From positions 6,958 to 70,957 of the IMG/VR virus record IMGVR_UViG_3300028048_000004: a stretch of 64,000 bases of DNA; one strand, 5' to 3'. The translations under genes and the position numbers were made by a program. Source of the stretch: a virus. Taxonomy: Duplodnaviria; Caudoviricetes. Below, in pieces: positions 3,220 to 64,000 of the stretch. Under the pieces are notes generated by a model, which was given only the letters and a program-made list of their open reading frames with translations, made no database searches and was not told the origin of the DNA. Positions within the stretch are counted from its first letter, which is position 1. Each line of letters begins with the position of its first letter.

Positions 3220-3291
3220 CAGCGGCAGTAGGAATCGAACCTACATTGTCAGGGTCAAAGCCTGCTGTACTAACCTTTATACTATACCGCT
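3220..3291 (-). tRNA. tRNA-Gln(UUG), intact, no encoded CCA
   Basis: Acceptor AGCGGTA/TGCCGCT; anticodon arm GCAGG-CTTTGAC-CCTGA; T-arm GTAGG-TTCGATT-CCTAC. Confidence 0.85.
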
Positions 3292-3297
3292 ATAAAA

Positions 3298-3747
3298 TTA
3301 CTTTCTGTTTCCAAATTTATCAATGAACTGGTTACCATTAAAACCTCGTAACTTTGCACTAGCACTACACTTTTGACAAAAATCTTTCGACATTTTTCTT
3401 CCCTTATTTACTGGTCCATGTTCCTTAACGTAATTTGCTAATCGCATATTACCTTTACTATGCAAACTTGAATGTTCACATCTTGATAATATCTGTAAAT
3501 TATTCAGTGCATTATTATGTGTATTTTCATCTATATGATGTACAATACAACCACGTGTGTAATCCTGCAAATACTTCATAGCAACAACTGTATGAACACC
3601 AAAAATATGTCTTTTATGATTAGTGTCAAATAATAATACTTGTAAATATTTATTAGACTTAAATGGTTTAATTTCTACTCCATTTTTATACACTCTACCA
3701 AGTTCATCAACATCATAATTTGGAAACATTTCTTGAAAGTTATACAT
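3298..3747 (-). CDS. Free-standing HNH homing endonuclease
   Basis: VHTVVAMKYL...VHHIDENTHNNALNNLQILSRCEHSSLH (HNH_3 type) with basic C-terminal tail. Confidence 0.85.
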   Translation of the reverse strand: MYNFQEMFPNYDVDELGRVYKNGVEIKPFKSNKYLQVLLFDTNHKRHIFGVHTVVAMKYLQDYTRGCIVHHIDENTHNNALNNLQILSRCEHSSLHSKGNMRLANYVKEHGPVNKGRKMSKDFCQKCSASAKLRGFNGNQFIDKFGNRK

Positions 3748-3868
3748 AATACCACTCCTTAAAATATAAAAACGCTATTGGAGTGCATGGTGCGAGCATA
3801 CACTTTTAGACCAATAGCGTTCTTAGCATAATTTAGTGGTGTAAAGTCTCGCACTCTTTACGAGTGAT
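3748..3868 (-). ncRNA. Structured kissing-loop leader RNA, copy 1
   Basis: Hairpin GTAAAG-aGTGCGAGa-CTTTAC; long hairpin CGCTATTGG..GTGTATG-CTCGCAC-CATGCAC..CCAATAGCG followed by T-tract and RBS; the two loops are exactly complementary. Confidence 0.7.
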
Positions 3869-3897
3869 ATTATAACATAACTTTATTAAATTGTAAA
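3869..3897 (-). promoter_or_regulatory. Sigma70-type promoter of the HNH cassette
   Basis: TTTACA-17-TATAAT. Confidence 0.8.
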
Positions 3898-4737: not shown

Positions 4738-4811
4738 TCGGGAATACTGGACTTGAACCAGTGACACATGGCTTATAAGGCCACCGCTCTAACCAACTGA
4801 GCTAATTCCCG
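4738..4811 (-). tRNA. tRNA-Ile(UAU)
   Basis: Acceptor CGGGAAT/ATTCCCG; D-arm GCTC/GAGC; anticodon arm GTGGC-CTTATAA-GCCAT; T-arm ACTGG-TTCAAGT-CCAGT. Confidence 0.9.
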
Positions 4812-4909: not shown

Positions 4910-4993
4910 TGCGGGTAGTGGGAGTTGAACCCACACGATATTACTATCAGAGGATTTTAAGTCCCCTACGTCTGCCTATTCCGTCATACCCGC
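4910..4993 (-). tRNA. tRNA-Leu(UAA)
   Basis: Acceptor GCGGGTA/TACCCGC + A73; anticodon arm GGGGA-CTTAAAA-TCCTC; long variable arm; T-loop TTCAACT. Confidence 0.9.
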
Positions 4994-5851: not shown

Positions 5852-5883
5852 GACTTGTAAACCCCATATCGTTTACATTATGT

Positions 5884-5912
5884 AGTATAACATTTATTTC
5901 TATATTTGTCAA
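5884..5912 (-). promoter_or_regulatory. Promoter driving the tRNA/ncRNA island
   Basis: TTGACA-17-TATACT. Confidence 0.75.
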
Positions 5913-5921
5913 CAACTATTT

Positions 5922-7201: not shown

Positions 7202-7837
7202 TCACCCCACTATATCGGCAACATATGGTAATCCACGTAAAATCTCCACAAAGTCTCTCCACTCATCCAACTTATGTCCAGTACGCTCTTTTATAATCTT
7301 GAACACTGTTTCATAAGACATACAAACTGTTCTTCGCTGATTGTAAGAGGATGGAAGTAACTGAATTAACTGCCACCAGTATTCTTTATTCTTTGTACTC
7401 AAATATTGATTCCTATACTGATTCATCAAATTTATAACACCATTAAGAATAATAATAGATGTCCCTTTTATTAAATGCTCATGACTAAAATCGTCTAATT
7501 CAAATTCTTTGGCGGCAATCTTATGCATAGTAGAACATGATACCTGTGATTTACCTACAGTATAACGATCCATTTCTTTCCACCAGTATAACGGCGCTGT
7601 AATATCCATTGATACTTGTATCATTCTAGCATATGTCCTATGCTCTGTTCCTGCTTTATATAATCTTCTCATGAGATTTAAATCATTTTCTCCAATTCTT
7701 GCTTGGATTTCTGGGCTTCCGTTTGCACCTGTCACAACAAAAATACTATCACTTTTATCCCAACTATTCATAGGATTGCGAAGTCCTCGGATTGCTCCTT
7801 CAAAATTAGATACTTCAACGTGTTCCACTCTTATCAT
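7202..7837 (-). CDS. ThyX-like (Thy1 fold) protein
   Basis: AIRGLRNPMNSWDKSDS, HRTYARMIQVSMDITAPLYWWKEMDRY, LLPSSYNQRR; canonical RHRxxS motif not present. Confidence 0.6.
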   Translation of the reverse strand: MIRVEHVEVSNFEGAIRGLRNPMNSWDKSDSIFVVTGANGSPEIQARIGENDLNLMRRLYKAGTEHRTYARMIQVSMDITAPLYWWKEMDRYTVGKSQVSCSTMHKIAAKEFELDDFSHEHLIKGTSIIILNGVINLMNQYRNQYLSTKNKEYWWQLIQLLPSSYNQRRTVCMSYETVFKIIKERTGHKLDEWRDFVEILRGLPYVADIVG

Positions 7838-8369
7838 ACTTCTTCACCTCAAATCTTCCATATTGATTACCAATAAATTTTTGCAGACCGTTTTCAAATG
7901 AATGTAATGTATTATCACTATAAGTACACCACTCTAAATTCTCCGCCCTGTTATCATTTTTAATACCATTCTTATGATTAACACACGGTAAATCATTTGG
8001 GTTTGGAATAAAGCACTTTGCTATAACTCTATGTGACTGCTCTGTACTATTATCACCTGTGTTTATCCATAAATAATCATTGTTATCTGTTCTTTGTTTC
8101 ATTATTTTACAATTACGAATAGTAATAAACTGTCCTGTTGAAAAAACTAATATTCCCTTATACAATACGGCATCATCTAATTTCAAATTATTAATTTTGC
8201 AACATTCTTTTATCTTTTGAATTTTTCTATAACTTAATTCCAAAATAGCATCAAATTCTGTTGCAACTGTTATATAAGGTTTTGAATGTAACTCATATCC
8301 ATATTTGTTCTTATGATAACCTTTATTTTGATAATGATTAAATAGATATTTTAACAACTCTAATTCCAT
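7815..8369 (-). CDS. Free-standing HNH homing endonuclease
   Basis: HRVIAKCFIPNPNDLPCVNHKNGIKNDNRAENLEWCT. Confidence 0.9.
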   Translation of the reverse strand: MELELLKYLFNHYQNKGYHKNKYGYELHSKPYITVATEFDAILELSYRKIQKIKECCKINNLKLDDAVLYKGILVFSTGQFITIRNCKIMKQRTDNNDYLWINTGDNSTEQSHRVIAKCFIPNPNDLPCVNHKNGIKNDNRAENLEWCTYSDNTLHSFENGLQKFIGNQYGRFEVKKYDKSGTR

Positions 8370-8751: not shown

Positions 8752-9278
8752 TTACCACTACCTCCGATTCTTGTTAATTCATATTCTGCCATTCTACGTG
8801 ATAATACTTTTTTACAGCTTGATAAAAGTTCCTGTGCGTTTTCTACCTTTGCTTTCATAGTTTTATAGGCTCTTGTATAAGACGATGAAATTATGTATTC
8901 TTCCTGACTTGCTAATTCTGCAAGCGAATCTTTATCTGCCACAGTTCCTTTTTCCTGACTTGCTCTAGCAGTATGATACATTTCTTTATATACTGCTTTT
9001 GCTATATCATCACGAATGCCTAACTGTTCACACATTCCACCAGCAAAATAAATATATGTGGAAAGATTAAGACAAAAATCATCAAGTTCATCTGTTGTTG
9101 GCGGATTCTCTCCATCTTTAAGACAGTCCTTAATAAACAGCACATACTTATCTAATGATGATACGTATGGAGATATGATTGAACTAACAATATCATCAAT
9201 TATTAAAGAATTTTTTTCTACATTCTCCCTAATACTGTTTATATTATCCATATTTAATTCATCAAGTGACATTTTCAT
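8748..9278 (-). CDS. Helical protein, possibly a UvsY-like recombination mediator
   Basis: Start at MKMSLD; C-terminal coiled coil GTVADKDSLAE...KAKVENAQELLSSCKKVL; located between recU and recA. Confidence 0.45.
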   Translation of the reverse strand: MKMSLDELNMDNINSIRENVEKNSLIIDDIVSSIISPYVSSLDKYVLFIKDCLKDGENPPTTDELDDFCLNLSTYIYFAGGMCEQLGIRDDIAKAVYKEMYHTARASQEKGTVADKDSLAELASQEEYIISSSYTRAYKTMKAKVENAQELLSSCKKVLSRRMAEYELTRIGGSGK

Positions 9279-9807
9279 TTTTACGCTTTTCCTCCCATCT
9301 ACGCTTTTGACTTTCAGACATTTTTCGTTTAGTCTCCTCCGAAGCAGGGCCGTACACTCTATTTCTCGCCTCCTTTTTACCATCACTTATTAACTTTTTA
9401 CGTTTAACCCAATTTTTCTTAACGCCATCTATTCTATGTGCTGTTGCATTATTATAATGATTATTGTAATAGTAAGAACACCACTCTAAATTATTTATGG
9501 AATTATTTGAAGGATTTTCATCTTTGTGATTAACACACGGTAAATTATCTGGATTTGGAATAAATGCTTCGGCTACTAAACGATGCACAAGTTTAAATTT
9601 ACTATCTACACCTTTTTGTAATCGAACTCTATAATAACCATTTCCTTGATTTACAGGTGTTAAAATTTTCTCACTGACTGGATATTTGTTATATCCATGA
9701 CTGCGATTTTTTCTAATTATAGTTCGTCTACAACTTTTTACATTACCTAAATTACTTACTTGATACAAGCCCTCATATCCAATAACATCTTTCCAAACTT
9801 CTTGCAT
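9262..9807 (-). CDS. NUMOD4-HNH homing endonuclease
   Basis: WKDVIGYEGLYQVSNLGNVKS (NUMOD4); VHRLVAEAFIPNPDNLPCVNHKDENPSNNSINNLEWC. Confidence 0.9.
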   Translation of the reverse strand: MQEVWKDVIGYEGLYQVSNLGNVKSCRRTIIRKNRSHGYNKYPVSEKILTPVNQGNGYYRVRLQKGVDSKFKLVHRLVAEAFIPNPDNLPCVNHKDENPSNNSINNLEWCSYYYNNHYNNATAHRIDGVKKNWVKRKKLISDGKKEARNRVYGPASEETKRKMSESQKRRWEEKRKNENVT

Positions 9808-9927
9808 AATAACCTCCTAAAATATAAAAACGCTTGTGGAGTGTATGGGTCGAGCATACACTTTTAGACCACAAGCGATTTTAACACTTTTAGAATTTGT
9901 TGTAAGTCTCGACCTCTTACAGAGGTT
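9808..9927 (-). ncRNA. Structured kissing-loop leader RNA, copy 2
   Basis: GTAAG-aGGTCGAGa-CTTAC and CGCTTGTGG..GTGTATG-CTCGACC-CATACAC..CCACAAGCG-TTTTT; homologous to 3748-3868 with compensatory changes. Confidence 0.7.
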
Positions 9928-9956
9928 ATTATACTATATTATTTAAAATGTGTAAA
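9928..9956 (-). promoter_or_regulatory. Sigma70-type promoter of the NUMOD4-HNH cassette
   Basis: TTTACA-17-TATAAT, overlapping the recU 3' end. Confidence 0.8.
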
Positions 9957-10445
9957 GAACTCTTCCATCCAATAATCAAAAAACACTCGTTTCTTTTTCC
10001 CCAATATTTTTATTGTTTCTATTTCTAACTCACCAGATGGGTAATACCCTAAAAACTGATTTTCATAGTCAAATCTTATACTCTTCTTACCCTCCAGTCT
10101 CTCTGCTTCTAAAATCTGTATAGGAATGAATAGTGTTGTATCTCTCTGCGTCCACCAACATATTACTCCTGCAAACACGCCTTCTATCTGAGACTTTTCC
10201 AACAACCCTTTCCACTGTGTATCTGTAATATTACTGAATGGTAATCTATTACCATGAACAGATTTACACTCGATATAATACTCATACGGTTCTTTATACA
10301 CAATGAAGTCGCAGATGTTCTGACTTCCTTTAAATCCGGTTGTTTGATCATGTAATCTGTCTATAGATACACCGGGAACTTTTTCAAAACATTGTCGCAC
10401 CACATCTTCAAATTGTTTTCCTCTATTTATACTCATACACATCAC
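9939..10445 (-). CDS. recU: RecU-like Holliday junction resolvase
   Basis: NRGKQFE...SQNICDFIVY...YIECKS...FSNITDTQWKGL. Confidence 0.8.
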   Translation of the reverse strand: MMCMSINRGKQFEDVVRQCFEKVPGVSIDRLHDQTTGFKGSQNICDFIVYKEPYEYYIECKSVHGNRLPFSNITDTQWKGLLEKSQIEGVFAGVICWWTQRDTTLFIPIQILEAERLEGKKSIRFDYENQFLGYYPSGELEIETIKILGKKKRVFFDYWMEEFFTHFK

Positions 10446-22117: not shown

Positions 22118-22166
22118 AGTGTTCTCCTTTCGTTTTAGAGTTTGCTGTGTTCTTTACTACTCTTAT

Positions 22167-22195
22167 ATTATAATACATATTTCTATATATGTCAA
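22167..22195 (-). promoter_or_regulatory. Sigma70-type promoter
   Basis: TTGACA-17-TATAAT. Confidence 0.8.
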
Positions 22196-22212
22196 CTACT
22201 ATTTTAACTTAT

Positions 22213-28754: not shown

Positions 28755-28783
28755 ATTTTACTATATACGCTCATTTGTGTCAA
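28755..28783 (-). promoter_or_regulatory. Promoter of the replication operon
   Basis: TTGACA-17-TAAAAT. Confidence 0.7.
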
Positions 28784-29011
28784 CTATTTTTTACTAAAGG
28801 ACTTTAAGATATCTTCGATTTGTGCATCTACTTCTGTATTGCATGTGTCCCAGAGTTTCTTTCTTTCCTCTTCTACTACATCATCCGGGTCAAGTGACCG
28901 CTCTTCACAGTATTCAACCGTGTAAAAAGAGTCTGCTACTTTTACGGATGCCCTACTCGTTGCCCGAATTGTCGTTATCGTCATTCCTACTCCTCCACAT
29001 TGCATATCCAA
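28784..29011 (-). CDS. Hypothetical protein
   Basis: ORF track; probable start MTITTI. Confidence 0.55.
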   Translation of the reverse strand: MDMQCGGVGMTITTIRATSRASVKVADSFYTVEYCEERSLDPDDVVEEERKKLWDTCNTEVDAQIEDILKSFSKK

Positions 29012-51229: not shown

Positions 51230-51422
51230 GTTACAATCTCCTTTACATTCATTTATATCTGCTTAACTTGTAAATCCGCAGTCGCAGTTCTGCGTTTAGA
51301 ATGTGCATGGGTTTAAATGTCTTCATGCTAGACTTACAATAATGTGGGCATATAGAAACCATATACCCACATTACCAAGGAGGACTAAGAATGAAAAAAG
51401 ACTTCACCTAATCCATACATAC

Positions 51423-63728: not shown

Positions 63729-63779
63729 ATCCTCCTCTGCCGTGTACCGGGTCCAGTGCCCGTCCTCTACTGTACTTAT

Positions 63780-63808
63780 ATTATACTACACGAATATCTA
63801 TATGTCTA
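63780..63808 (-). promoter_or_regulatory. Early promoter
   Basis: TAGACA-17-TATAAT. Confidence 0.7.
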
Positions 63809-64000
63809 CCACTTTCGGACAATTTTATGAAGAAATTTGATCCGTGGTACCTTTGTTCTGGGTAAGGTTTTTGCTATGGGTAAAATACCGTTTACTGTTT
63901 TTCCAGTATATCCATACCGTCATACTGTACATTTGGTACCAGACACAGCAGCTTAAATTCTGCGTCCAGCAGTGCCTGTCCCTCACTGGTAGCCTCTACC

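Follow-up and report, generated by a model that had tools for sequence, protein, structure and literature searches.

Positions 9,808 to 9,956 (minus strand) of the window, the 64,000-nt stretch of phage DNA analyzed here, hold a promoter followed by a structured leader that ends directly before a NUMOD4-HNH endonuclease gene. On balance, we favor the view that this leader is a cis-acting, attenuator-like 5' RNA of a mobile homing-endonuclease cassette, which would limit expression of the nuclease, and that it belongs to an uncatalogued family of kissing-loop terminators. The fold, its conservation through matched mutations, the modular link to endonuclease genes, and the promoter and terminator signatures were all observed in the sequence.

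Homing endonucleases have to be expressed at levels that are high enough to spread and low enough to spare the phage, and only a few controls of their expression are known (the T4 hairpins and the mobE terminator), all from a single phage group. Documented here is a portable promoter-plus-RNA module that is common to unrelated endonuclease genes and occurs in phages of both Firmicutes-type and Bacteroidota-type hosts. Moreover, a terminator whose loop kisses an upstream hairpin is not a described terminator or attenuator design.

Two leader copies in one phage genome

The window corresponds to bases 6958-70957 of an IMG/VR record of 70,957 bp with direct terminal repeats. Judged by RecA, the closest cultured relatives are phages of Streptococcus and Clostridium (approximately 40% identity), and both the promoters and the ribosome binding sites (RBS) of the phage are of the Firmicutes type. 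The genes around both leader copies are carried on the minus strand. The coordinates of all features are compiled in Table 1.

Table 1. Features of the two leader copies and of their surroundings, in window coordinates.
Feature	Position	Strand	Description
Copy-2 promoter	9928-9956	-	-35 box TTTACA 9956-9951; 17-nt spacer; -10 box TATAAT 9933-9928
Copy-2 alternative 5' hairpin	9912-9926	-	6-bp stem, 3-nt loop
Copy-2 hairpin A	9902-9920	-	5-bp stem, 9-nt loop; loop core GGTCGAG 9914-9908
Copy-2 linker	9878-9901	-	24 nt, A-rich, not conserved
Copy-2 hairpin B	9831-9877	-	outer stem of 9 bp, 9877-9869 with 9839-9831; bulge 9868-9863
Copy-2 hairpin B, upper tier	inner stem 9862-9855 with 9847-9840; loop 9854-9848	-	inner stem of 8 bp; loop CTCGACC
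Copy-2 U-tract	9819-9830	-	TTTTTATATTTT; directly 3' of the G+C-rich base of hairpin B
Copy-2 RBS	9818-9813	-	AGGAGG; followed by ATG 9807 of the NUMOD4-HNH ORF
ORF behind copy 2	9262-9807	-	NUMOD4 and HNH_3 domains; phrog_59 HNH endonuclease; ATG 9807, stop at 9262
RecU-like ORF upstream of copy 2	stop codon 9941-9939	-	stop codon inside the spacer of the copy-2 promoter
Copy-1 module	3748-3897	-	-35 box 3897-3892; -10 box 3874-3869; RBS 3760-3755
Copy-1 hairpin A	3861-3841	-	loop core GTGCGAG 3854-3848
Copy-1 linker	3840-3820	-	
Copy-1 hairpin B	3819-3773	-	loop CTCGCAC 3796-3790; U-tract 3772-3761
ORF behind copy 1	3298-3747	-	HNH_3-only endonuclease
Third HNH_3 endonuclease ORF	7815-8369	-	related to 9262-9807 by repeats
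tRNA genes (three)	3220-3291, 4738-4811, 4910-4993	-	
GP20-a RNA (RF02991)	51234-51337	-	67.6 bits, exceeding the gathering score
Similar promoter regions	2413-2442, 9932-9961, 22171-22200, 28759-28788; also 5866-5917, 22149-22200, 63762-63813	-	-35 box, conserved spacer, -10 box

An earlier note, made from the letters of the window, had presented this element as a second copy of a leader with compensatory changes in its kissing loops and stems, and every change that it listed was confirmed. The module at 9808-9956 repeats the architecture of that at 3748-3897. Two positions differ in each loop (GTGCGAG to GGTCGAG in loop A, CTCGCAC to CTCGACC in loop B) and 7/7 complementarity is kept in both copies; two pairs of the outer stem differ and both are compensated; the bulge and the tail are unchanged, and divergence is concentrated in the linker. 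Further, the inner stem has U.G in copy 1 and U-A in copy 2, and one A-U pair of hairpin A is lost in copy 2 relative to copy 1. Otherwise, the helix differences between the copies, the loop match included, are pair-preserving.

The copy-2 promoter is of the sigma-70 type, matches the consensus boxes at 11 of 12 positions and is, together with that of copy 1, among the three best promoter-like sites in 8 kb. Hairpin A begins 7 nt past the -10 box, at about the predicted start (+1). Taken alone this hairpin is weak (-1.2 kcal/mol, and -2.5 kcal/mol in copy 1), and its loop core is the exact complement of loop B, with a duplex energy of -12.0 kcal/mol; in both copies the loop pairing is flanked by mismatches on both sides. 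The bulge of hairpin B, TCTAAA, is one-sided and 6 nt long. Hairpin B (-21 to -25 kcal/mol) and the 12-nt T-rich tail behind it, which includes 5 U, are shaped like an intrinsic terminator; a simple terminator scan overlooks the hairpin owing to the bulge.

Both folds are far more stable than those of shuffled sequences (z of about -5 to -6; none of 200 shuffles was as stable), and the chance of a perfect 7-nt complement to one given loop within approximately 60 nt upstream is about 0.003. Across the whole 70,957-bp genome, these two copies were the only ones: a loose descriptor scan returned about 13 chance hits per genome, from which only both known copies stood out.

Several features of the surroundings were also recorded. 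The copy-1 cassette sits within an island formed by the three tRNA genes. The copy-2 promoter is a 73%-identical member of the family of similar promoters in the window, so that the cassette uses the phage's own promoter type. The third HNH_3 endonuclease ORF has no such leader, and the gap to the MazG-like ORF upstream of it is only about 50 nt. Within the copy-2 linker, positions 9881-9891 (minus strand) are an exact 11-nt repeat of the bulge and the first inner-stem bases of hairpin B; this repeat could weakly compete for the 3' arm of hairpin B and is absent from copy 1 and from a related leader, L258.

A family of leaders with covarying loops

Upstream regions of NUMOD4-HNH genes were gathered from viral, metagenome and genome collections, yielding 198 non-redundant regions, and terminator-like hairpins, called blind to loop complementarity, were present in 53 of them. 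Within 130 nt upstream, 13 of these 53 regions contained a Watson-Crick complement of at least 7 nt to the apical loop, whereas 500 permutations of the loci against each other gave 1.1 on average and never more than 5. With complements of at least 6 nt, 19 regions were observed and the permuted mean was 4.7. These complements were located in small hairpin loops, at 24-42 nt on the 5' side of hairpin B.

A covariance model (R1) was built from five members only (L329, L336, L261, L263 and L088), with the window copies excluded. It recovered both window copies at full length, with 37.3 and 33.2 bits (E of 3.5e-5 and 3.2e-4 in a search of 249 kb), as well as L029, L081, L059 and L258. The model was too narrow for members with a Bacteroidota-type promoter, which were placed correctly at E values of 3-6, within noise, and it detected no further copies in five related records.

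Pair counts were taken from a model-guided alignment of ten sequences (A6). Another alignment (A5) was left out of the counts since noise sequences were mixed into it, as were the MAFFT alignments of divergent members (A3, A7 and A8), in which hairpin A or the outer stem was misregistered by 1-3 columns. Standard pairs occupied 94.1% of the cells in A6, compared to 79.8% in shuffles, none of 500 of which reached the observed value; when partners were slid by 1-3 columns as a control, 30-46% of cells were paired. The kissing helix was 93.5% paired, and four of its seven pairs were changed on both sides. As this helix lies outside R1, it had no influence on the alignment. L088, in which the 6-nt kiss appears to be shifted by two columns, is the probable source of the unpaired cells. 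G.U pairs occur in three helices on one strand only, which identifies the RNA as the sense strand of the endonuclease gene. The selection on an RNA fold with kissing loops that had been proposed from the two copies was thus backed by family-wide evidence for hairpin A, both stems of hairpin B and the kiss.

The curated family comprises 16 members with 11 different loop codes, from Firmicutes-type and Bacteroidota-type phages. What unites them, the window copies included, is a terminator-like hairpin (hairpin B) preceded at 10-26 nt by a small hairpin, with loops that are complementary to each other over 6-8 nt. Loops with unrelated codes match at 1-4 nt; the consensus tends towards G-NNNN-AG in loop A and CU-NNNN-C in loop B, and the four middle positions covary. 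Eight members have a sigma-70-type promoter (the window copies W1 and W2, L258, L329, L336, L261, L263 and L088), and in seven of them hairpin A lies 6-7 nt past the -10 box, at about the predicted +1; the exception is L263 (8 nt), where hairpin A was shortened by a deletion. Another seven (L275, L222, L252, L235, L091, L090 and L098) are of the Bacteroidota type, with a TAnnTTTG box and without a Shine-Dalgarno sequence, and here hairpin A follows the promoter box at a variable spacing of 1 to 15 nt. The remaining member, L233 (581-700), is a simpler two-hairpin kissing pair with a 7/7 match and no outer stem; a tRNA gene immediately precedes it, and a promoter-like site and the endonuclease gene follow. 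Such a position suggests that the module can also serve to terminate upstream transcription, a role that fits L233 better than that of a leader.

A T-rich tail follows hairpin B in 15 of the 16 members. In hairpin B, a two-sided AGUA/GAA internal loop, which we take to resemble the loop E (bulged-G) motif, separates the outer from the inner stem in 10 of 16 members, in opposite orientations in the two host groups. This feature is frequent yet not universal: the one-sided 6-nt bulge takes its place in the window copies, L258, L029 and L081. The absence of the internal loop from the window copies and the weakness of their hairpin A count against the reading favored here.

One member, L258, is a natural recombinant: its hairpin A stem and its linker (the latter with four point changes) are those of copy 1, both of its loops and its outer stem are those of copy 2, and it thus displays three coordinated double changes within otherwise copy-1-like sequence. 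Over 135 nt the copy-1 leader shares 99% identity with L029, and over 146 nt it shares 98% with L081; this similarity begins near the -10 box and stops exactly at the ATG, and the ORFs behind these relatives encode another endonuclease type. Further, L336, which was found through a DNA pattern alone, precedes a third endonuclease type (phrog_374). The promoter-plus-RNA module is portable among unrelated endonuclease genes.

A similarity search with the 149-nt element against 50,697 phage records found nothing. Two pattern scans of IMG/VR gave mostly chance matches, with the true relatives L029, L059 and L081 and one new sequence present in four loci (L336-L339). The leader had no match in Rfam 15 at gathering thresholds; at E values up to 10, copy 1 gave only noise (mir-455, 19 bits) and copy 2 gave no match. 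No description of a kissing-loop terminator leader was found in full-text literature searches.

How the leader may act

In the mechanism that we favor, transcription from the strong sigma-70-type promoter would start at about the first base of hairpin A and, approximately 95 nt later, would encounter hairpin B and the U-tract, with the form of an intrinsic terminator. Loop A would pair with loop B (7 nt each), tying both hairpins into one compact fold, and only transcripts reading through hairpin B would get to the RBS and the endonuclease gene, so that the leader would dose transcription into a nuclease gene that may be harmful, from the cassette promoter as well as from the upstream genes. 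We infer that hairpin B terminates and that the kiss alters the efficiency of termination; a promoter with a terminator immediately behind it seems wasteful unless termination is partial or regulated. If the kiss does tune termination, the leader would constitute a compact, protein-free and reprogrammable part, of which 11 natural codes were seen, and would explain the quieting of selfish nuclease genes in many uncultured phages.

The loop-loop kiss does not compete with the terminator stem, and no conserved alternative helix sharing sequence with a terminator arm was found in the family. Short antiterminator candidates (6 nt in copy 1 and 5 nt in the copy-2 linker) are not conserved in L258. 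An antiterminator reading was rejected for want of a conserved competing helix. The RBS lies 3' of the U-tract in both copies; it is unpaired in the minimum-energy fold of copy 1 and marginally paired in that of copy 2.

It is unlikely that the main product is instead a stable small RNA of about 100 nt that acts alone, or a 5' stabilizer of the endonuclease mRNA that merely extends the life of read-through transcripts, with the hairpins and the kiss shielding the RNA from exonucleases. Such a role would suit the compact fold, the strong promoter and the placement of hairpin A at the predicted +1 in nearly all sigma-70-type members, and a 5'-terminal stem-loop stabilizes RNA in Firmicutes. However, the linker, which is the sole single-stranded part, lacks conservation, no target for it was found in the phage genome, hairpin A stands at anything from 1 to 15 nt from the promoter box in the Bacteroidota-type members, and the element always directly adjoins the start codon of the endonuclease. 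A guide role for the linker, which had also been raised, was not upheld: its matches to the phage genome were no better than those that shuffled linkers give, and between W1 and L258 the linker drifts through point changes in a spacer-like manner.

Quite unlikely is a switch set, in this lineage at least, by the transcription start point, in which transcripts from the cassette promoter would form hairpin A and kiss, while those reading in from upstream would form the alternative 5' hairpin, which conceals part of loop A, and could not. The terminator would then treat the two transcript classes differently, in a transcription-level analogue of the T4 late-promoter leaders. In copy 2, the 3' arm of this hairpin shares sequence with hairpin A, including the initial 3 nt of loop A. 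The 5' arm coincides exactly with positions -6 to -1 relative to the predicted start site, so that transcripts from the cassette promoter would lack that arm. At -6.1 and -6.4 kcal/mol in copies 1 and 2, respectively, it is stronger than hairpin A, and no terminator lies between the upstream RecU-like ORF and copy 2. The earlier note had counted this hairpin among the covarying helices. It is indeed present in both window copies and varies in step with loop A between them, but in L258 loop A has changed and the 5' arm has not, leaving an uncompensated hairpin of only -3.2 kcal/mol, and nothing comparable was found in the other 13 family members. The start site on which the switch depends is, moreover, a predicted one. 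The alternative hairpin is thus at most a lineage-specific feature that would act on read-in transcripts from upstream genes.

Binding of the leader RNA to a protein, either the endonuclease itself (inhibited as by a type III antitoxin) or a host or phage factor that recognizes kissing complexes or the internal loop, appears improbable. The order of elements in ToxIN (promoter, structured RNA, terminator, toxic gene) resembles that of the leader and its gene, and the AGUA/GAA internal loop in 10 of the 16 members is a common protein-binding motif. This is at odds with the window copies, which are without that motif, and with the use of the same leader by unrelated endonucleases from three families; nor are there tandem RNA repeats, the leader being a single unit whose only internal repeat is the 11-nt one in copy 2.

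Chance complementarity or a DNA-level feature (a recombination or cleavage site, or an operator palindrome), to which the inverted repeat over the predicted start site in both copies might point, is very improbable and is contradicted by the covariation, as 16 members keep the same pairs with different sequences, G.U pairs occur on one strand only, neither the permutation nor the slid controls reproduce the signal, and two copies in one genome would require two DNA-binding specificities.

Returning to the attenuator-like leader, cognate loop duplexes have calculated energies of about -12 kcal/mol and crossed ones of about -5 kcal/mol, which fits the proposal that different loop codes would insulate the two copies from each other; the same loop codes recur in other phages. 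A bolder extension, to which we assign a small probability, is that the 7-nt loop pair acts as a private address code. Only transcripts from the cassette promoter would then dock hairpin A on the terminator, the efficiency would be set per transcript class and per cassette without a protein, and the codes would keep several cassettes in one genome from interfering. If this were true, it would amount to promoter-specific, RNA-only control of termination.

Known systems and other leader classes

The phage T4 gene mobE carries an intrinsic terminator at its 5' end, where 30-50% of transcripts stop; this terminator is retained in all instances of the gene and has been read as an adaptation that down-regulates a harmful HNH nuclease (PMC2790892). 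The likeness lies in a Rho-independent terminator placed where it restrains transcription of a homing endonuclease gene of the free-standing HNH kind (Wilson and Edgell 2009, PMC2790892). For mobE there is no dedicated promoter, and the terminator, a simple hairpin of 9 bp, is located 27 nt into the coding sequence (PMC2790892). This is in contrast with the leader described here, which has a dedicated promoter and a two-tiered terminator whose loop pairs with a second hairpin. We regard the mobE terminator as the closest tested precedent.

Leaders of T-even endonucleases (I-TevI and relatives) contain a hairpin that hides the RBS, which is freed by transcription from an embedded late promoter. 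Shared with the window leaders are a cis RNA structure directly before the endonuclease start codon and a promoter placed such that the start point could decide the fold; in the window copies, the alternative 5' hairpin may operate in a similar manner. Here, however, the RBS is outside hairpin B and is not sequestered, so that control would act on termination rather than on translation.

Kissing loops with full complementarity over 7 nt are also formed by RNA I and RNA II of ColE1, while the CI RNA of phage P4 pairs with sites in its own leader and causes early termination. The present leader resembles the former in its fully complementary 7-nt hairpin loops and the latter in having complementary sites within one leader that are tied to termination; most B loops begin with C-U, and the YUNR pattern applies to some of them. 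It differs from both in that a single short RNA contributes both loops, separated by about 40 nt, with the apical loop of the terminator itself as one of the two, in the lack of a separate antisense gene, and in the lack of an Rfam match to those families. Its elements are arranged in the same order as in riboswitch and attenuator leaders, and purine riboswitches likewise have a tertiary contact between loops, but the present leader has neither a shared antiterminator helix nor a conserved core resembling a ligand pocket, and its loop sequences vary freely.

Other structured leaders were encountered in the survey of NUMOD4-HNH genes. One class (L089, L116, L204, L205 and L096/L097/L107/L120) has a terminator-like stem enclosing a hairpin with a near-palindromic loop (AGUAGCUA or similar) and a second hairpin; the complement of this second loop is located 3' of the U-tract or close to the RBS. 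In another (L131, L321, L141, L136/L206 and L229), an upstream anti-Shine-Dalgarno loop is complementary over 6-7 nt to the loop of a second hairpin, which is located just before the ATG and has the Shine-Dalgarno sequence in that loop, and such leaders would represent a kissing-loop form of RBS masking. In L114, L220, L278 and L109, 12-13 nt of a large terminator apical loop pair with the adjacent upstream segment (1-2-1'-2'); these helices are too long to coexist and may form a true antiterminator/terminator pair. Finally, a true RBS-sequestering hairpin was seen in L093, beside the kissing-loop family.
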